A stretch of 64,000 bases of DNA from Parcubacteria group bacterium (GTDB lineage Bacteria > Patescibacteriota > Minisyncoccia > Moranbacterales > UBA2206). Location of the stretch: NCBI GenBank assembly GCA_041674205.1, contig JBAYWF010000002.1, forward strand, positions 46,940 to 110,939, read 5' to 3'. Positions 4,567-64,000 of the stretch are shown here, in pieces (within the stretch, counting starts at the first letter, position 1; each line of letters starts with the position of its first letter). The position numbers were made by a program, and so were the translations under genes. Under the pieces are notes generated by a model. The model was not told where the DNA came from. It searched no databases and worked only from the letters and a program-made list of their open reading frames with translations.

Positions 4567-5040
4567 TTATCTCGTCAGCTCCAAAAATTTAAACTTGTAT
4601 TGGCCATTGTCAACCGCCTCCTCCTTTATGATATTTTTAAATTCAGAGTAATCCGGGAAAAAAGTATCGGCATCTTCCGGGGCATCTTCCACGACCGTCA
4701 AATAGAGCTTATCTACCATTGGCAAAGAAAGCTTGTAAATTATGCCGCCTCCGATGACAAAAACCTCCTCTTCGCTATTTTTATATTCTTGCAAAACTTC
4801 CTCCAAAGAATTCCTGACTTCCACGCGATCATCCCGGAAATCTTTGTCGAGTGTCACGACGATATTTTTCCTATTCGGCAACGGTTTGCCGATGGACGCG
4901 AAAGTCCGCTCGCCCATAATCACAGTGTGGCCGGAAGTCGTTCTTCTGAAATGCGCCATATCCTCCGGGATATCCCAAAGCAACCGGTTATTGCGCCCGA
5001 TGGCGTTATTTTTAGCGACTGCCACGATAAGTGAAATCAT
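4567..5040 (-). CDS. folA: dihydrofolate reductase
   Basis: MISLIVAVAKNNAIGRNNRLLWDIPEDMAHFRRTT, classic DHFR. Confidence 0.9.
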   Translation of the reverse strand: MISLIVAVAKNNAIGRNNRLLWDIPEDMAHFRRTTSGHTVIMGERTFASIGKPLPNRKNIVVTLDKDFRDDRVEVRNSLEEVLQEYKNSEEEVFVIGGGIIYKLSLPMVDKLYLTVVEDAPEDADTFFPDYSEFKNIIKEEAVDNGQYKFKFLELTR

Positions 5041-13411: not shown

Positions 13412-13485
13412 GGGCCCTTAGCTCAGTTGGCTAGAGCGCCTCGTTTGCACCGAGGAGGCCGGGAGTTCGAATCCCCCAGGGTCCA
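13412..13485 (+). tRNA. tRNA-Ala (anticodon UGC)
   Basis: cloverleaf read by eye; G3:U70 in acceptor stem; anticodon loop tTTGCAc; CCA not encoded. Confidence 0.85.
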
Positions 13486-13551
13486 CAGCATAAATTTTTA
13501 ATTTTAAAATTTTTAATTATAGAGTCGCTTTCGCGACGAATTTTTATTTAC

Positions 13552-13625
13552 GGGCTTATAGCTCAGTTGGTTAGAGCGCGTCACTGATAATGACGAGGTC
13601 TCAAGTTCGAATCTTGATAAGCCCA
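13552..13625 (+). tRNA. tRNA-Ile (anticodon GAU)
   Basis: cloverleaf read by eye; anticodon loop cTGATAa. Confidence 0.85.
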
Positions 13626-13631
13626 CATCGA

Positions 13632-14077: not shown

Positions 14078-16597
14078 CTATTTTGATTTTAAAATAGCTT
14101 TTTTGAACGCGTCACCTTTCTCTTCGAAATTCTTCCAAACGCTATAACTCGGTGAAGCGGTCGAAAGCAAACATATTCCGCCAGGCCTGCTATTGGCAAA
14201 AGCGAATTCTACCGCTTCATCCATTTCTCCGGTATGTAAAATATGGTATTTCTTCTTGGACTTTTTACGCAAAGCCGCCGCGATTTTTTTCCCGCTATCA
14301 GGAAAAAAGGCGATATTTCTGACTTTCGATTTATCGATAGCGACGGCTAGCTTCAAAAAGTCATAACCCCGATCCAATCCACCCAAAAATATCGTATCCA
14401 CATCTTCCAATGAATCGATGGCCGCCATAGTCGACTCAGGCGTAGTCGAAATCGCATCGTCATAAAATCTGATTCCCTGAAATTCACCGACCAGCTCCAA
14501 GCGATGCGGCAAAGATCGGAATCCCTCAATGCCTTGTTTTATGGTATTTTTAGAAATTCCCAGCACATCAGCCACGGCGATTGCCGCTTTGATATTTTCT
14601 ACATTATGCTTGCCTAGCAAGGGGACCTTTATATCTCCTAGGCCTATCCCATTGAATGGAACTTTTTTTACATTCAAGCCGGCGAGTCTTTTTTCCAACT
14701 CACGATCTTTTTGATTAAATACGCAAACATCGGTCTGATTCTGAAATTTCACAATATTGCTCTTGGCCGCATAATATTTTTCCACACCACCATGGTAATT
14801 CATATGTTCAGGAAAAAGATTAAGCATCACCGCGATATTCGGCGAATACCGGATATCATCCAATTGATAGCTGGAGAGTTCGATGACGAAAATTTCTTCC
14901 GGATCGATCGGTTGCAATATGGCTTCCAGCATCGGACTGCCGATATTTCCCAATAGCCTGGCTTTTTTCCCCGCGGCCTGCAAAATAGAAAAAATGAGTG
15001 AAGCCGTAGTGCTCTTGCCTTTGCTGCCCGTGACTCCAATGGTCAGATTCGCCACTTGGGAAAAAAACAAGTTAGTCGCGGTCGTGTATGGCCGAGTGAT
15101 CAATTCCTTAGGCAAGCCCGGAGTTTTTATAACCAAATCAAATCCATCCTGTTTTTCCAAATAATCCGATCCGTCCTTTTCGTCCGCGATGGCAATTTTT
15201 ATTTTTGGAAAATATTTTCTTATATATTTCCCAGTCACCATCCCTTCCTTGCCATAACCTAAAATCAGTGCATTTTTAATACCCGATAACTTGAATTTAT
15301 CAGGCAATGCTGGCGCCGGGTTTGTCTCAAAGACCTTTTTAATAAGCTTGTCTGGATTTTTTATCCTATTGACGACATTTTGCATAATAAAGCTGTCTGT
15401 GAATTTGTCCTTAGCCGAAAACAAAGCCGCACGCGACTCATCAAAAGTACCGACACAATCGAAGGGTTTCATTTTTCCATAACCCAACACGTCCAAAAAT
15501 AAAGGCAATAGTTTTTCATCCGCATACATATCCTTATGGAAAATTTCCATCATTTCCCGCTTGCTCAAAAAAGCTGATAAGAGAATCCACATAAAAACGC
15601 ATTTAGGACATTCGCCGCACCACAATCCGTTCGGCCGATCCTTATGTATGCGGAAGCTGCGGTTGCAACTCGTAAATAAGGGGAAATATTTTTTATACCT
15701 TACGAACATCTCCACGATGCGGATCTCATAGAACGGGCGCAAAAGGGAGAAATATGTGACATCCGGACAGATATTTTTTCTAGTATATTCCTGGAAAAGT
15801 TTTTCAAATTCAGCCGACTTGCTCCATTGATGGTTGATTTCTTCACCTTTATAGGTGATGTTGCCGAAATTACTGCTATATTCGTTAGCTACGACCACCC
15901 GGGCATAATCATAAACGATCGCCGCGAAATAACCCAGAAAAGCGAAGACGGCCGAAATCGGGATATGTCCGTTATAGGCACCGGGAAAATCATCAAATAT
16001 CTTATCGTCCACACGCCTATTAATCACCAATGATCCGATTTTCAATTCCTCGGCTATCCGAACGGAAATCGGGGATTTTTTTTGCGTTTCAATCAAAAGA
16101 GCCGTGATATCCTCCCGCTGCTCCTTCAAAAGTTCCGCCGCCACGATCGAATCCTTGCCGCCGCCGATACCTACCAGTGAACGGTTTTTCCGGACCAGTT
16201 TGCGCGCGATCGGTTTCTTTTTCGCGTCATACGGGAATCTGACCAAATTATGCGGATCAATTCCGTTGCGATAAAAAAATTCACCCAAACCTTTCCGATA
16301 AACCGTATTCCAAAATTCCGCCTGATCCTTGGAAAGGACGGAGGAAATTTTTATTTTTTTCGGACAATATAATTTATAATAACTTATTCCCAATATGATA
16401 TGGATGCTGGATAATAAGTTTTTCAAAATTTCCGGATGGATGCCGGACACTGAAAATTTATCCGAAAAAGATATCGTCTCTGAAAAACGCAACGGCTCCC
16501 GATCGGCAAAAATTATCTCATAGTCAAAAACAGCCCTGGTTTTATCCGGCTCCAACTTATACGAAATAAAATTAAAGACTTTCGGATTAGGTTTCAT
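14078..16597 (-). CDS. fusion protein: N-terminal PP-loop ATP-pyrophosphatase domain (QueC-like, C-terminal CxxCxxC) + complete MurD-like Mur ligase
   Basis: SGGxDS-type PP-loop LVGIGGGKDS, CGECPKC; C-terminal half has MurD Rossmann N-domain and Mur ligase P-loop GVTGSKGKSTT. Confidence 0.7.
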   Translation of the reverse strand: MKPNPKVFNFISYKLEPDKTRAVFDYEIIFADREPLRFSETISFSDKFSVSGIHPEILKNLLSSIHIILGISYYKLYCPKKIKISSVLSKDQAEFWNTVYRKGLGEFFYRNGIDPHNLVRFPYDAKKKPIARKLVRKNRSLVGIGGGKDSIVAAELLKEQREDITALLIETQKKSPISVRIAEELKIGSLVINRRVDDKIFDDFPGAYNGHIPISAVFAFLGYFAAIVYDYARVVVANEYSSNFGNITYKGEEINHQWSKSAEFEKLFQEYTRKNICPDVTYFSLLRPFYEIRIVEMFVRYKKYFPLFTSCNRSFRIHKDRPNGLWCGECPKCVFMWILLSAFLSKREMMEIFHKDMYADEKLLPLFLDVLGYGKMKPFDCVGTFDESRAALFSAKDKFTDSFIMQNVVNRIKNPDKLIKKVFETNPAPALPDKFKLSGIKNALILGYGKEGMVTGKYIRKYFPKIKIAIADEKDGSDYLEKQDGFDLVIKTPGLPKELITRPYTTATNLFFSQVANLTIGVTGSKGKSTTASLIFSILQAAGKKARLLGNIGSPMLEAILQPIDPEEIFVIELSSYQLDDIRYSPNIAVMLNLFPEHMNYHGGVEKYYAAKSNIVKFQNQTDVCVFNQKDRELEKRLAGLNVKKVPFNGIGLGDIKVPLLGKHNVENIKAAIAVADVLGISKNTIKQGIEGFRSLPHRLELVGEFQGIRFYDDAISTTPESTMAAIDSLEDVDTIFLGGLDRGYDFLKLAVAIDKSKVRNIAFFPDSGKKIAAALRKKSKKKYHILHTGEMDEAVEFAFANSRPGGICLLSTASPSYSVWKNFEEKGDAFKKAILKSK

Positions 16598-54492: not shown

Positions 54493-54647
54493 TTTTGTTT
54501 TCCGTACCCGCGCCTCAAGCGCGGGATATTAAATTATTAGTCGGAAGGCTGCAGCGCTTCCTGATGATATTTTATCACTGCCGTTATCACTGTCAAGTTT
54601 TCGGCTGTGGATAACTTATTGCAGCGGTCCGACCCCTCCAAAAAACT

Positions 54648-56623: not shown

Positions 56624-56715
56624 ATTTTTTAACTTATTTGATTATAGTGATATAGTATCATTATAATCGAATCCGTCAACCCTTCACGACCTTGTTTATT
56701 GCAACTATCAAAAAA

Positions 56716-56747
56716 CGCATGGACATTCTCACATTCTCGAGAATGTG
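56716..56747. promoter_or_regulatory. 32-bp near-perfect palindrome upstream of Fic gene (GAATGT half-sites, centred on CTCGAG)
   Basis: ACATTCTCACATTCTCGAGAATGTGAGAATAT. Confidence 0.6.
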
Positions 56748-56756
56748 AGAATATGT

Positions 56757-57380
56757 TCATTGCCCATCATCATCCAGGAAATTCCCGAGCTCAGAAATGT
56801 TCAAAAAATCTATGCCGGCGGCCTGGGCCGCGCCGCTGTCGGCCCGGCTATCGCCGATAAGCAGGTATCGCGATTTCGGAAAGCTCCCGTCAAAAATCAA
56901 GGAAAAACCGTCCGCCCGCGGTTTGATATACCGGACATCGTTGCGCGTAACGATCTTTGCGAAAAATTTCGCCCAACCCAGCTCCTCCAAAATCAGCTGG
57001 ATCGTCCGCCGGTCATTGGATGTCCATAAATATAATTCGGCATACTTCCGGGATAATTCGAGCAGGGGCGCCGCGAGCGGCGACAAGTCGTAGCCGTAAA
57101 AAAAATCTTTTTCAATCCCGAAATTCATTTCATTCATCCTCTCGCTGGCCGCATCGCCACCTTTTTCGATGCAAAGATTTATCTTCTCGGAATAATTCAA
57201 ATCAGGGCTCTCGCTGAAATCCAACCCGAACTCGGAAAAAATGCCATCCAGCTCCTCGCACCAAGGCTTCCAATCGACCAACAACGTGCAGAGCGTCTTG
57301 TCGAAATCGAAAATAATATGCTTGATGTCTTTTTCTTGGATGTAGTTTTCGAACTGTTCTTTTTTCATGTTTTTTTGCAA
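56757..57380 (-). CDS. HAD-superfamily hydrolase
   Basis: IIFDFDKTL (DxDxT motif). Confidence 0.7.
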   Translation of the reverse strand: MQKNMKKEQFENYIQEKDIKHIIFDFDKTLCTLLVDWKPWCEELDGIFSEFGLDFSESPDLNYSEKINLCIEKGGDAASERMNEMNFGIEKDFFYGYDLSPLAAPLLELSRKYAELYLWTSNDRRTIQLILEELGWAKFFAKIVTRNDVRYIKPRADGFSLIFDGSFPKSRYLLIGDSRADSGAAQAAGIDFLNISELGNFLDDDGQ

Positions 57381-57397: not shown

Positions 57398-57440
57398 GGG
57401 AAATTTAATACGTATAAAGGTAAGTGTTAAAATCATTCAC
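57398..57440. promoter_or_regulatory. motif B copy (immediately upstream of HAD gene)
   Basis: GGGAAATTTAATACGTATAAAGGTAAGTGTTAAAATCATTCAC. Confidence 0.55.
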
Positions 57441-58740: not shown

Positions 58741-58786
58741 AAAAAATTTAATACGTATTAAGGTAAGTATTTAATCATGTATATCC
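58741..58786. promoter_or_regulatory. motif B copy (upstream of small membrane protein gene); contains perfect 14-bp palindrome TTAATACGTATTAA
   Basis: AAAAAATTTAATACGTATTAAGGTAAGTATTTAATCATG. Confidence 0.55.
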
Positions 58787-59376: not shown

Positions 59377-59406
59377 GAATATTTAATATACGTTAATACA
59401 ATCACC
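59377..59406. promoter_or_regulatory. motif B-related half copy (upstream of S51 gene, next to motif A)
   Basis: GAATATTTAATATACGTTAATACAATCACC. Confidence 0.4.
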
Positions 59407-59421
59407 TTGAATTATTTTGTT

Positions 59422-59446
59422 GGCTTTCTGCAGAATGTGGGAATGT
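59422..59446. promoter_or_regulatory. motif A copy 1 (upstream of S51 peptidase gene)
   Basis: GGCTTTCTGCAGAATGTGGGAATGT. Confidence 0.6.
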
Positions 59447-59458
59447 TGTTTTTTATAT

Positions 59459-60037
59459 CTATTCCCTTCCGATCTTGTCCAACAATCCATCAAAGGGGAA
59501 ATTTTCAGTATAGATAATCGGGTTTTCAGCTTTAGTCGGACGTTCGAAATTAATAGCATCTTCTGTCAGCCAGCCTGAGGGAACATCATGCCTGTCGCGA
59601 GTTATTTTGTTGCGCGCCTTCCTTTCCTTCAACACCTCAACGGGAATATCCAGATATACTAAAGAAAAATCGACACCCATATCTTTCGCTACGGCACGCA
59701 GATCTTCACGCTGGCGGAAAAGCAAGCAGTTGTCGTCAAAAACCACCGAATTGCCGATGAGCAATTGGTTCTTGGCTCCCTGCACGGCAATCGGCCAGAG
59801 ATTGTTCCACAGCGAATCATCATCGTCGTCCGGCGTGCTTTCAAGGGCTAATATTTTTTCAATGGCAAAATAGATGCGATCGCGCCCGACTATTTCCGCC
59901 CCAAAAGACTCGGACAATTTCTTGGAAAGTGTCGTCTTTCCGGAAAAAGCTTCCCCGCAAAGAATAATGAGACGCTGTTTTTCCTTTTTCATATCATTTT
60001 TAATGTTAATTGATTGTGGATTATCCCGCACTGACAT
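59459..60037 (-). CDS. P-loop kinase (AAA_33 / zeta-toxin-like fold)
   Basis: LIILCGEAFSGKTTLSKKL Walker A. Confidence 0.55.
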   Translation of the reverse strand: MSVRDNPQSINIKNDMKKEKQRLIILCGEAFSGKTTLSKKLSESFGAEIVGRDRIYFAIEKILALESTPDDDDDSLWNNLWPIAVQGAKNQLLIGNSVVFDDNCLLFRQREDLRAVAKDMGVDFSLVYLDIPVEVLKERKARNKITRDRHDVPSGWLTEDAINFERPTKAENPIIYTENFPFDGLLDKIGRE

Positions 60038-60067
60038 TCTGTCTTTCTGCAGAATGTGAGAATGTCG
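60031..60067. promoter_or_regulatory. motif A copy 2 (upstream of P-loop kinase gene)
   Basis: CTGACATTCTGTCTTTCTGCAGAATGTGAGAATGTCG. Confidence 0.6.
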
Positions 60068-60072
60068 TTTTA

Positions 60073-60372: not shown

Positions 60373-60445
60373 AATTTAATTTTATAACCGCCAACACACT
60401 ATCATATTTCAATAATATCACAATCCTACCATCCCACAACATCCT

Positions 60446-60472
60446 GGCTTTCTGCAGAATGTCGGAATGTCG
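60446..60472. promoter_or_regulatory. motif A copy 3 (upstream of ArsR gene itself)
   Basis: GGCTTTCTGCAGAATGTCGGAATGTCG. Confidence 0.6.
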
Positions 60473-60627
60473 CGGTGGCATATGTGTGATATGTGCGGGC
60501 TATTTCAGATTGAAGGCTTGGTGCGGGATGGATTGCTCGAGAGCGGCAAGGTCGGATTGGGTGGATTTTTGGCGAGCCTGCAAGCGGGCGATTTTTTCGC
60601 GATTTACATCCAGCCGCATGATGATCC

Positions 60628-61095: not shown

Positions 61096-61206
61096 ATATT
61101 TATTTTATTTTTTAATTGAGCAATAAAGGTACCCGACCCATTTTAATCATGGTTTTGTGACATGATTGGATGCGCTAATGCTTATTTTTTGCTTTTATTA
61201 TATCAT

Positions 61207-61244
61207 GCTGACATTCTGGCTTTCTGCAGAATGTGGGAATATCG
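61207..61244. promoter_or_regulatory. motif A copy 4 (upstream of tspO)
   Basis: GCTGACATTCTGGCTTTCTGCAGAATGTGGGAATATCG. Confidence 0.6.
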
Positions 61245-61288
61245 TTGTTGCTGTTTTTTTAAAAATAAACCTTCAGGACTAGCTTGAA

Positions 61289-61768
61289 TTATTTTACAAA
61301 ATTTTTGATTGCACTAATAAACTTTCCCGGTTCTGCCTCAATAGCCTTTTTCAATTCATCCCTGGAAAACCATCTGATCGCTTCCACCTCTTTCGGTTCA
61401 ATTTTAAATTCATTCAATCCTCTATCTAAAACTATTTTGTACCATTGGCAGAAATAATTATAGGTTCGGCTAACCCTGACCTTTTGAGCCTTCTCAAATT
61501 CAATTCCGCTCAAACCGATTTCCTCCTCTGCTTCTTTCACGATGTTGCTGTCATATGTTTCTCCCTCATCATTTGTTCCGGAAACGGCCGAACCCCATTT
61601 GCCAGGACTATGGCTCTTATTGAAAGATCTTTGAGCCAAAAGAACCTCGCCCTTGCTATTCTCAATCCACAAAGCACTGACGCGATAGATGTCATCGCGA
61701 ATCACTGAATCTCTTTCCTTGCTTCCGATAATTTCATCCTGCTCATTAACTATGATTATTTTTGCCAT
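61289..61768 (-). CDS. Nudix hydrolase
   Basis: Nudix box GTNDEGETYDSNIVKEAEEEIGL. Confidence 0.7.
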   Translation of the reverse strand: MAKIIIVNEQDEIIGSKERDSVIRDDIYRVSALWIENSKGEVLLAQRSFNKSHSPGKWGSAVSGTNDEGETYDSNIVKEAEEEIGLSGIEFEKAQKVRVSRTYNYFCQWYKIVLDRGLNEFKIEPKEVEAIRWFSRDELKKAIEAEPGKFISAIKNFVK

Positions 61769-61778
61769 AAAAAAAATT

Positions 61779-61828
61779 AAATTACTGAATTCCCTCCATA
61801 GGCGAGTAAAAAATTCATGAATTGTAGT
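61779..61828. promoter_or_regulatory. motif C copy split by ~20-nt insertion (upstream of Nudix gene)
   Basis: AAATTACTGAATT-ccctccataggcgagtaaaaa-ATTCATGAATT. Confidence 0.45.
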
Positions 61829-61878
61829 CGAGGACCGTCCTTTTTAAGCATGAATTTTTTCCCGTATCGGGCTTGGTT

Positions 61879-61916
61879 AAAAATTTAATACTTATCAAGG
61901 TAAGTATTAAATTACG
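61879..61916. promoter_or_regulatory. motif B copy (between NERD and Nudix genes)
   Basis: AAAAATTTAATACTTATCAAGGTAAGTATTAAATTACG. Confidence 0.5.
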
Positions 61917-61919
61917 TAA

Positions 61920-62714
61920 TTATATAACTGTCATTTTTTTATTTTCTTCACCTGATCTGATATACCGAGAAATTTGAAAAGATATTTCATTAACATCATC
62001 CCCACTAAATATTTCCTTTTCATTCGCTAGATATTTCGGTAAAGCTTTTGGCTCTAAAACCCACACGTCATTATTTTTCTTACTTGCCTTAATGAACCAT
62101 CCTGGATACACAACCACCGCCTTAACTGAAACATCTCTGCCTGTTATTTTGAGAATAAGTTTTTGAAGCCAATCCCGTTGCGCCTTTGCTTGGATAATTG
62201 GTTTTTCTGATATAGTCCCTCCGTTCATTCGAATACCTTTACTATCGTAATCAATAATTGCCTGTCCCTTCCCAGGCTTGCTCCATGTTTTAGTTTCAAT
62301 CGTAAACGCTCCAGCTGGCCCGATGATAATGTGATCTAAGTTAAATCCATCGCCAATCAGATCATGAAAAACAAAATATCCCTTGGTTCTCAGCGATTCT
62401 AAAAATTGACCAACTTCTCTTTCACCATCCCTGCCCAATTTTCTATTACTTATTTCCTTTTTTGCATACATATATTTTGCAATAGCATATCCAGTGACAA
62501 CGATTGCAACGAACGTCCATACTTCTGGCAAGGGTGGCTTGTCGTATGTTTTTTCATACCATTGAAGGAGCGCTACGACAATGGTAAATATAGCCAACAA
62601 AGCTGGGGAAATAATGCTATCATAAGCAATATCTCGAATTTCTTCGGTTAGTGATTGACCTGGATAACGCAAGGGCTGAGCTTTTAGTGGCGACTTCTTT
62701 TTTATATTGGCCAT
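61920..62714 (-). CDS. NERD (nuclease-related) domain protein with N-terminal TM helices
   Basis: GRDGEREVGQFL...YFVFHDL...DHIIIGPAGAFTIETK. Confidence 0.6.
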   Translation of the reverse strand: MANIKKKSPLKAQPLRYPGQSLTEEIRDIAYDSIISPALLAIFTIVVALLQWYEKTYDKPPLPEVWTFVAIVVTGYAIAKYMYAKKEISNRKLGRDGEREVGQFLESLRTKGYFVFHDLIGDGFNLDHIIIGPAGAFTIETKTWSKPGKGQAIIDYDSKGIRMNGGTISEKPIIQAKAQRDWLQKLILKITGRDVSVKAVVVYPGWFIKASKKNNDVWVLEPKALPKYLANEKEIFSGDDVNEISFQISRYIRSGEENKKMTVI

Positions 62715-62724
62715 TTTTTTATTT

Positions 62725-62754
62725 TAATTACTGAATTAATTCATGAATTATGGT
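62725..62754. promoter_or_regulatory. motif C copy (immediately upstream of NERD gene)
   Basis: TTAATTACTGAATTAATTCATGAATTATGG; overlapping palindromes TGAATTAATTCA and ATTCATGAAT. Confidence 0.55.
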
Positions 62755-62816
62755 CGGAAATGATTAATTAATGATTGCTCATTATTTTGCCTTAAAAGGT
62801 GCCTGACCCCATATAT

Positions 62817-63455
62817 CTATTTCAATTTGATGTAAATTTCAGGATCACCCTTGATCAGATTTTTGATTTCTTCTATCCTATTTTGCAAGAAATAATCGAA
62901 CTCTTCCGGAATGACGTTCGGAAAATCATAATCATGTGAAACGACCAGGACAGTTTCAGCATCCTCTTTCAGTTTTCTCACTAAGGGCTTCAAATAGCTG
63001 AACGTGTCTATTATGACATCTCTCGCCTCATCGATATCATAGCCATCAGTCTCGCTGAATCTTTTTGCGATTTCAGCCAAGTTTTCATCATTGATCAATG
63101 CATACATCTGAATAAAAGAATCCTTAGTTGGTATATATTCATCAATTTGCTCCAATTTGAAATAGCCGACCAATGTACCTAATTGACTCATATATTGCTC
63201 ATCTCCCATAGCTGAATTTATCAAGGCTGATACCGAACCCATTTTTAAATAAATATTTTCCAGCCCAGCTAAAAAATCATCACCCCCATATCGGTAGGCG
63301 TCTTTTAATTCTGAAAAATGCTCAAAAAATTTATTTTCTTCCGATTCACCAGCCTTCTCCACGGAATCGGCTTTCTTCACAAAATCTAAAAACTCAGCCA
63401 AAGTTTTTTCAGCTTCATCCTTGTTGAACGCAAAAATTTCTGTTATAACACTCAT
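62817..63455 (-). CDS. acidic hypothetical protein
   Basis: 212 aa, D/E-rich, no motif recognised. Confidence 0.4.
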   Translation of the reverse strand: MSVITEIFAFNKDEAEKTLAEFLDFVKKADSVEKAGESEENKFFEHFSELKDAYRYGGDDFLAGLENIYLKMGSVSALINSAMGDEQYMSQLGTLVGYFKLEQIDEYIPTKDSFIQMYALINDENLAEIAKRFSETDGYDIDEARDVIIDTFSYLKPLVRKLKEDAETVLVVSHDYDFPNVIPEEFDYFLQNRIEEIKNLIKGDPEIYIKLK

Positions 63456-63462
63456 TTTTTTA

Positions 63463-63505
63463 GGTAAGTAATTAATTACTGAATTAATTCATGAATTAAA
63501 ATTAT
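63463..63505. promoter_or_regulatory. motif B tail + motif C copy (upstream of acidic 212-aa gene)
   Basis: AGGTAAGTAATTAATTACTGAATTAATTCATGAATTAAAATTA. Confidence 0.55.
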
Positions 63506-63592
63506 TTCTGAAACACAAACAAATGTTCATGCATAATTAGGAGGAAATTACTTTCCTTGGAGCGATTCACCCAAAAGCCTGTGGCTTTGCAA

Positions 63593-63796
63593 TTAAAATC
63601 CTTCTGGCTCATCAATTTTTCCTTTGCAATTTATACAAAAGAATTCTTGTGATTCAACACTTTCATCTCCATGAAAATCATTCCACTGCCTCGTTTCTAG
63701 ATCGAAAGAATAATAACGAGTTTCTTTTTGAACAATGCCAATAACTTCGTTAGTATTCCTGCAATGCTTACATGTATATTTTTTTAATTTTTCCAT
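63593..63796 (-). CDS. small zinc-ribbon protein
   Basis: CKHC...CINC paired CxxC. Confidence 0.45.
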   Translation of the reverse strand: MEKLKKYTCKHCRNTNEVIGIVQKETRYYSFDLETRQWNDFHGDESVESQEFFCINCKGKIDEPEGF

Positions 63797-63797
63797 A

Positions 63798-63983
63798 TCA
63801 TTTTTCTTTTTTATCTTTCAGGTTAAAATGATAAGTTTTTTCATCTTTCAATTCAACTCCAATAACTTCATCAAACTCCATATCTTTGAGCCAAGCACTT
63901 TCTTCTTTGAAATTATCAAATGCTTCCTCCGCAACATTGCCTTTCCCCCATCCTAAAACTTGGCAATTTTCAACATCTGACAT
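63798..63983 (-). CDS. small hypothetical protein
   Basis: 61 aa ORF adjacent to Zn-ribbon ORF. Confidence 0.3.
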   Translation of the reverse strand: MSDVENCQVLGWGKGNVAEEAFDNFKEESAWLKDMEFDEVIGVELKDEKTYHFNLKDKKEK

Positions 63984-64000
63984 GTCACTTTCTGAATCAG

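Follow-up and report, generated by a model that had tools for sequence, protein, structure and literature searches.

A two-box motif before three accessory genes of a Parcubacteria group bacterium as the candidate operator of a small AbrB-type protein

AbrB, Abh and SpoVT of Bacillus are small DNA-binding domains that act in AT-rich promoter regions and autoregulate; for AbrB, we know of no tight binding consensus. MraZ, a member of the AbrB superfamily, recognises a run of direct repeats within the dcw promoter. MraZ, MetJ and omega all use short head-to-tail boxes with a period of about one helical turn, which vary in number and orientation and overlap the promoter. Bacteria of the candidate phyla radiation (CPR) have not been cultivated, very few regulators can be recognised in them, and their gene control is to our knowledge almost unknown. 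Here, we describe the anatomy and distribution of a short repeated element, motif C, in a stretch of 64,000 nucleotides from a Parcubacteria group bacterium (GenBank assembly GCA_041674205.1, contig JBAYWF010000002.1, positions 46,940 to 110,939; hereafter the window), and its association with a family of genes for small AbrB-like proteins. From these comparisons, we propose with a probability of roughly 0.6 that motif C is the operator of an autoregulated small AbrB-type repressor and that it puts accessory genes under the control of this protein.

Coordinates are those of the window, and genes and motif are given in gene orientation, which is that of the minus strand. Motif C consists of two 12-bp boxes, a (AATTCATGAATT) followed by b (AATTCAGTAATT). 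The pattern AATTCATGAATT-N(0-30)-AATTCAGTAATT matches three times, always on the minus strand (61780-61823, 62726-62749 and 63474-63497), against a chance expectation of 0.00 in 100 shuffles. An earlier note on this DNA had reported overlapping palindromes before three genes, and both could be located: TGAATTAATTCA, formed jointly by boxes a and b, at 62732-62743 and 63480-63491, and ATTCATGAAT at 61813-61822, 62739-62748 and 63487-63496. All three downstream genes, each a putative target, lie on the minus strand. Copy 3 (63474-63497) is found 18 nt 5' of the ATG of an acidic 212-aa gene without family match (62817-63455), and is contiguous with a third 12-bp box, AATTACTTACCT (63462-63473); a box like the latter, AATTACTTACAT, closes the array of locus L023, described below. 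Copy 2 (62726-62749) ends 11 nt before the start codon of a 264-aa NERD-domain gene (Pfam; 61920-62714). These two copies are intact, as the earlier note held, and share a 27-nt stretch at 100% identity (62724-62750 and 63472-63498). In the remaining copy, box a (61812-61823) is separated from box b (61780-61791), which ends 11 nt before the start codon of a 159-aa NUDIX gene (Pfam; 61289-61768). Neither a further copy nor a single box of this type was found in the rest of the window (62 kb) or in 8.7 kb beyond it, so that the 73 kb examined of this genome contain motif C three times.

To place the motif in other genomes, one genome per species was scanned, which returned 17 loci, and a metagenome scan added 30 further loci. 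The ungapped 24-mer is present in nine of the 17, which are Moranbacteria or Patescibacteria metagenome-assembled genomes (MAGs) or contigs sharing sequence with such MAGs. After removal of duplicates, CPR genomes and metagenomes together provide 24 distinct contexts for the exact 24-mer. Conservation ends about 4 nt outside the 24-mer and the flanks are otherwise unrelated. Across loci, the general unit is a 12-bp box AATT-N4-AATT with the cores CATG, CAGT/ACTG, ACGT, ATGT or ACTT, assembled in either orientation into arrays of two to five boxes, such as b'ab in L004, L029 and L032 or d'abd in L023. An open reading frame (ORF) of at least 55 aa starts no more than 45 nt downstream in 10 of the 24 contexts; L017, with a 41-aa ORF, and L045, at a contig end, can be added to these. 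In the remaining contexts, the 24-mer follows a terminator or a tRNA, falls between convergent genes or is contained in an ORF. Genes for MarR, kinase, S51 peptidase, Fic and AbrB-like proteins are common to the window and several motif loci, at 72-90% nucleotide identity and in a different order, and we therefore regard these loci as relatives with shuffled accessory genes. A phage origin was rejected: the exact 24-mer was not found in viral contigs, and the 22 viral matches to the 16-mer palindrome, which have neither the AATT flanks nor AbrB-like genes, look like chance or unrelated occurrences.

In four of these contexts (L023, L047, L029/L043 and the L009 group), the array directly precedes a small gene of the AbrB/MazE/SpoVT family, whose product starts with MAxxKxxExNIRKL. 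On the assumption that such genes make up at most 0.5% of all genes, the chance of finding at least four among 24 contexts can be roughly estimated at 1e-5. The array of L023 directly adjoins the AbrB-like gene. In the L009 group, a 78-aa GIY-YIG gene with flanking inverted repeats (ACCCTGTTAAATAA / TTATTTAACAGGGT; L009 7671-7966) lies between the two and looks like a small mobile insertion.

We further picked five members of the protein family blind to their DNA, by protein similarity and contig count. All five loci (L055, L060, L066, L074 and L079) carry arrays of 12-bp boxes before the ATG. The exact ACTGAATTAATTCAGT is found in L055 (TAAAAT-ATTACTGAATTAATTCAGTAATT), L060 (ACTGAATT AATTACTGAATT AATTCAGTAATT) and L074 (TATAAT-TAATTACTGAATTAATTCAGTAGTT); related 12-bp boxes are found in L066 (AATTACATAATT GGTTACGTAACT AGGTACGTAATA) and in L079, where they form a 36-nt palindrome (AACTCATGAATT AACTCCGGAGTT AATTCATGAGTT). 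In these five loci, as in L023, L029, L047 and the L009 group, the arrays end 2-25 nt before the ATG. Within the 35 kb scanned for this purpose (the five blind-pick loci and three loci of Nudix homologues), TGAATTAATTCA occurs only at the three regulator sites of L055, L060 and L074.

The protein search returned 858 relatives. The best 120 of these 858 are 66-84% identical, and those among them that carry a name are Jorgensen-, Pace-, Parcu- and Patescibacteria. In related genomes, the motif-adjacent proteins score 17-29 bits against Pfam PF04014, three of five lying above the cut-off of 24.7. An AlphaFold (AF2) model shows the topology strand-strand-helix-strand-strand, and its best Foldseek matches are AbrB, MazE, SpoVT and VapB with a probability of 0.84-0.95. 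The neighbours of the AbrB-like gene are UPF0102, MsrB, MgsA, D12 methyltransferase and convergent Cas1 genes. No toxin gene stood next to it in the contexts examined, and the protein therefore looks like a stand-alone regulator. In L060, the UPF0102 gene (2001-2581), which has a weak NERD match, starts 18 nt after the AbrB-like gene, which links a NERD-related nuclease to the AbrB-like regulator in a second genome.

Two paralogues of the AbrB-like gene carry other arrays of 12-nt period before their ATG, TATATACTCAAG three times in L009 and TTTAATACTTAC... in L003, a locus of the present genome. These differing arrays fit the view that each regulator has an operator of its own. Strand 2 of the protein reads G-L/I-T where the array holds boxes with CAGT/CATG cores whose AATT spacing is that of motif C, and x-V-T where the boxes are other or differently spaced; L079, with CATG cores in its outer boxes too, belongs to the latter. 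This co-variation of protein and box is a weak hint, from a sample too small for a test.

How the boxes stand to promoters was examined by consensus scan and by inspection. With a 16-18 nt spacer, the scan for sigma-70 -35/-10 elements detected none inside the motif core. Its only promoter-like site, TGAACA-17-AATAAT (63501-63529, minus strand), lies just 5' of copy 3 and would place the transcription start inside box a of this copy. Before copy 2, three nucleotides and the first AAT of box a make up a -10-like CATAAT (62747-62752, minus strand). Before the split copy, a -10-like TACAAT (61821-61826) is directly preceded by a G module (61827-61840) composed of a GGACSGTCC palindrome, here GGACGGTCC, and TCGAC, the whole arrangement spanning 61821-61840 on the minus strand. 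The same arrangement of G module and -10-like hexamer is common to the cassettes of L031, L044, L045 and L050. In L050, the G module carries a compensatory change on both arms (GAACCGTTC). Sister cassettes have TATAAT or TAAAAT at the first box, and L009 and L023 have TAAGAT 12 nt upstream of the 24-mer core. Since these -10-like hexamers are found at variable offsets 5' of the first box or overlapping it, the boxes are not themselves the promoter; to judge from their placing, they would sit at or just after the expected transcription start, in the early transcript.

In the reading that we favour, boxes a and b form an array on which a 59-aa AbrB/MazE/SpoVT-family protein, highly conserved in Parcubacteria, would dock. 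The presence of the boxes before the regulator's own gene implies negative autoregulation. In the window, the boxes separate a -10-like hexamer from the start codon in each of the acidic, NERD and Nudix genes, where the bound protein could block initiation or early elongation, so that the three accessory genes would join its regulon. We infer binding, repression, the transcription starts and any effect of the split from comparative evidence. The operator evoked in the earlier note is supported by this evidence: the same boxes occur in the promoter region of a conserved AbrB-type gene in many related genomes.

Several observations weigh against this proposal. The tblastn search of the window and L003, together 73 kb of this genome, found no cognate regulator gene, the one hit being a paralogue (L003 4868-5029; gene 4865-5032) with different boxes. 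For about half of the 24 contexts, the nearest 45 nt contain no gene start, and the quality of the -10 element was not significantly linked to the presence of a gene (p = 0.39). The order a-then-b is biased relative to genes, which a symmetric dimer site would not require. Moreover, loci L004-L050 were gathered by exact motif match, which makes box conservation among them partly circular. Finally, the tiny size of the domain leaves the Foldseek E-values weak (0.4-0.8), and the mean predicted local distance difference test score (pLDDT) of the model is only 70.

The bias in box order would be at home in a different scheme, in which the motif is a portable promoter-proximal or 5'-untranslated region (5'-UTR) module contacted by RNA polymerase, the ribosome or another factor, acts without the AbrB-like protein and has the AbrB-like gene merely as one frequent user. 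In several cassettes a -10-like hexamer (TACAAT, TAAAAT, TATAAT, AATAAT or CATAAT) ends in the first AAT of box a, and the start codons, which have no Shine-Dalgarno sequence, follow the end of the motif by 3-23 nt. The a-then-b order is skewed towards the downstream gene, and the same hydrolase gene, found behind motif C in L017, has another upstream region in L045, as if modules had been swapped. However, the offset between -10 and box varies, to the point that the boxes of L079 lie upstream of TATAAT; the consensus scan gave no promoter inside the core, and roughly half of the sites are away from gene starts. Furthermore, perfect dyads such as ACTGAATTAATTCAGT and the 36-nt palindromes of L029 and L079 suit dimeric DNA-binding proteins rather than polymerase or ribosomes. 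We consider this scheme possible, and on balance unlikely.

The reshuffling of genes among relatives could also be taken to mean that motif C serves recombination or mobility, as an integron- or dif-like cassette boundary or as a miniature mobile repeat. Its copies flank single, unrelated genes of the same strand in a low-GC island, the same genes are reordered in relatives with the motif at the junctions (L017, L045 and L050 compared with the window), the core is identical between unrelated flanks, and a GC-rich module, called H below, sits at one junction in either orientation. Against this, the 73 kb show neither integrase nor transposase in the neighbourhood of the copies and hold three copies only, target-site duplications are absent, as are terminal repeats other than the boxes, the element is just 24 nt long, its window copies fold no better than shuffles, and a mobility site would not be expected to keep so closely to the gene start of a single regulator family. 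We hold such a role to be improbable. Even less credit, and very little, is due to an action at the RNA level, by a hairpin (terminator or 5'-UTR structure) or by the mini-ORF ATG-AAT-TAA inside box a. Compared with shuffles, the extended arrays b'ab (L029) and d'abd (L023) do have much more stable folds (z = -5.9 and -5.6, respectively), several copies follow terminators or a tRNA gene, and the core has stops in three frames, the upstream gene of L017 ending inside it. But the three window copies fold like shuffles (z = -0.03 to -0.42), no T run follows the core, and the Rfam scan of the window returned two tRNAs only and no match to the motif.

We then considered the split copy before the Nudix gene. 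The earlier note had described it as divided by an insertion; the split is real, both 12-mers are exact, and the insert is 20 nt long, not 21. On the forward strand it reads ccctccataggcgagtaaaa (61792-61811); in gene orientation this GC-rich H module is TTTTACTCGCCTATGGAGGG, located on the minus strand at the a|b junction. Because both 12-mers are exact, the likeness of this copy to motif C is not the coincidence that the earlier note had allowed for. The further repeat reported after it is present as well (catgaatttttt), at 61849-61860, as an inverted-repeat partner: it is the reverse complement of AAAAAATTCATG (61808-61819), the two lying around a GGACCGTCC palindrome.

Alignment with five collinear sister cassettes, which share the lead-in GGACSGTCC-TCGAC-(-10), revealed one clean 20-nt insertion at the junction of box a and box b. 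The module is not unique to this locus. A homologous GC-rich module, TTTAYYCGCC-N3-4-GRRGGG, separates box a from box b in L010 and L011 (19 nt each, that of L011 inverted) and in L013, and such modules also adjoin boxes in L013, L019 and L025. Since such modules recur at the same box junction in other genomes, the insertion is not a one-off strain accident, as it might have seemed. Whether the split re-spaces or inactivates an operator is thus a fair question about a genuine insertion, though not about a singular one. The palindrome TGAATT|AATTCA is broken while both boxes stay intact, and an H-type module widens the distance between the box centres from 12 bp to 31-32 bp; in the Nudix copy it is 32 bp, or about three helical turns. 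That the boxes are intact in L010 and L011 is uninformative, because the search pattern required exact boxes. On the favoured reading, the H module in the Nudix copy should weaken or re-phase cooperative binding; it might also abolish binding or bring in a second factor. A hairpin in the H module was rejected on inspection, its pairing being poor and not conserved.

The comparison with orthologous loci suggested in the earlier note was of no help for telling whether the insertion is strain-specific. The closest Nudix homologues (74-78% amino-acid identity) have neither the motif nor synteny, their upstream regions and neighbours being unrelated. Partial synteny is seen at L102 (NERD - 52 aa - TspO), whose NERD protein is a homologue with 67% identity; this locus has neither a Nudix gene nor motif C, and the region upstream holds just a degenerate AACTACGTAATC box.

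The host belongs to the CPR and is Parcubacteria/Moranbacteria-like. NCBI lists its Nudix and NERD proteins as those of a 'Parcubacteria group bacterium', the window overlaps a 100-kb ENA metagenome contig with one mismatch and an 11.5-kb Logan contig with none, and its gene content includes ribosomal and housekeeping genes (EF-Tu, SecY, GatB) together with hydrogenases. All three motif copies lie inside an island of 30-39% GC in a genome of 45-50% GC. This island extends over about 3000-11000 of L003, that is, from about 61700 to 64000 of the window and past its end, and contains genes for two DpnII-like methyltransferases, a methyl-directed DpnI-like restriction enzyme, Fic, Bro-N and a MazE/AbrB-like protein. 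Below about 50% identity, the named homologues of the NERD protein are from Proteobacteria (Thiobacillus, Sideroxydans, Rhizobium); the gene therefore looks horizontally acquired by the CPR host and subsequently equipped with a lineage-specific control site. PADLOC returned nothing for the NERD and acidic proteins and a weak match only for Nudix, and a known defence system was accordingly rejected. A LexA/SOS box, prompted by the NERD, Nudix and GIY-YIG genes, was dropped, the motif being unlike GAAC-N4-GTTC. Elsewhere in the window, an 839-aa ORF (14078-16597) combines a MurL-like epimerase part with MurD, and a tRNA-Ala/tRNA-Ile pair (13412-13626) lies on the strand opposite to its neighbours.

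Two other repeat families occur nearby. The palindrome GACATTCTG...CAGAATGTC has five intergenic copies around a MarR-like gene (56709-56758, 59401-59450, 60020-60069, 60425-60474 and 61197-61246) and is also found in L102 (3992-4138); it stands upstream of TspO both in the window and in this NERD-syntenic relative, and is probably another operator. The third family, TTTAATACTTAC...GTATTAAA, has a 12-nt period and copies at 57399-57438, 58742-58781 and 61879-61918 of the window and at 4828-4864 and 1200-1240 of L003. It resembles the array that directly precedes the paralogous AbrB-like gene (L003 4865-5032), behind a conserved promoter-like TTTTGGCGTAAAATGGAAG, and is likely to be the operator of the paralogous protein. 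In addition, a perfect DnaA-box-like TTATCCACA is present upstream of three genes (L003 1556-1610, 2016-2101 and 18068-18222, the last at about 54493-54647 of the window), and a promoter-like GATATGATATCACTATAAT recurs about 20 nt before start codons (L003 2016-2101, 5033-5099 and 15959-16091, the last at about 56624-56756 of the window).

The pairing described here joins a sharply defined 24-bp site to a protein of 59 aa, with 66-84% identity among several Parcubacteria lineages. If the proposal is true, the CPR group would gain a first regulon, in part of horizontally acquired genes, that takes in nuclease-like, Nudix, hydrolase and other accessory functions, and the site could serve as a sequence tag in metagenome searches for more members. 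A bolder extension, which we regard as speculative and rather doubtful, is that the 59-aa protein and its 12-bp arrays make up a Parcubacteria-wide system of global control, a silencer or gatekeeper of accessory and horizontally acquired genes, with portable operator cassettes and a GC-rich mini-module of 19-20 nt that re-tunes single operators by site-specific insertion at box junctions. In our literature search, AbrB and Patescibacteria were not mentioned together, and papers containing the string TGAATTAATTCA were not on these bacteria.

Several known elements were compared with motif C and set aside. Half-sites of the ARG box, an 18-bp TGAAT-N4-ATTCA (TGAAT-WWWW-ATTCA) bound by ArgR/AhrC, and of the 15-bp CodY box AATT..C.G..AATT resemble those of motif C. 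Both identities were rejected, since the present arrangement is TGAAT-TA-ATTCA with a 2-nt spacer in the first case and 12 bp long instead of 15 in the second, and neither ArgR/AhrC nor CodY was in evidence. The attC sites of integrons are structured and 57-141 nt long. An attC site or cassette array was excluded by the absence of an integrase in the 73 kb, the 24-nt size of the element and its unstructured window copies. A REP- or MITE-type repeat (repetitive extragenic palindrome or miniature inverted-repeat transposable element) is at odds with three copies in 73 kb, unrelated flanks and the lack of duplication. An intrinsic terminator or known RNA family is likewise rejected by the z-scores of the window copies and by an Rfam result limited to tRNAs.

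Among the closest known systems are AbrB, Abh and SpoVT, whose fold class, a swapped-hairpin AbrB-type N-domain, the CPR protein shares by Pfam PF04014 and Foldseek. In contrast to AbrB, it is only 59 aa long, a single domain without the C-terminal multimerisation domain, and its putative sites are defined 12-bp boxes and palindromes. With the antitoxins MazE and VapB it has in common the domain family and, as proposed here, an operator in its own promoter; however, no MazF or PIN toxin gene follows it in the contexts examined, and a type II toxin-antitoxin module (MazEF or VapBC) was rejected for want of an adjacent toxin gene. Its candidate sites are also found before unrelated genes, which makes the system regulon-like rather than a toxin-antitoxin autoregulatory loop. 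The repeat architecture of the arrays recalls MraZ, MetJ and omega, as a functional analogy only: the box sequence and the 12-bp period differ, and MetJ and omega have a ribbon-helix-helix fold. Thus, the mechanism proposed would be an ordinary one, a small autoregulated repressor on a palindromic or tandem operator, carried out by an apparently undescribed member of the class.

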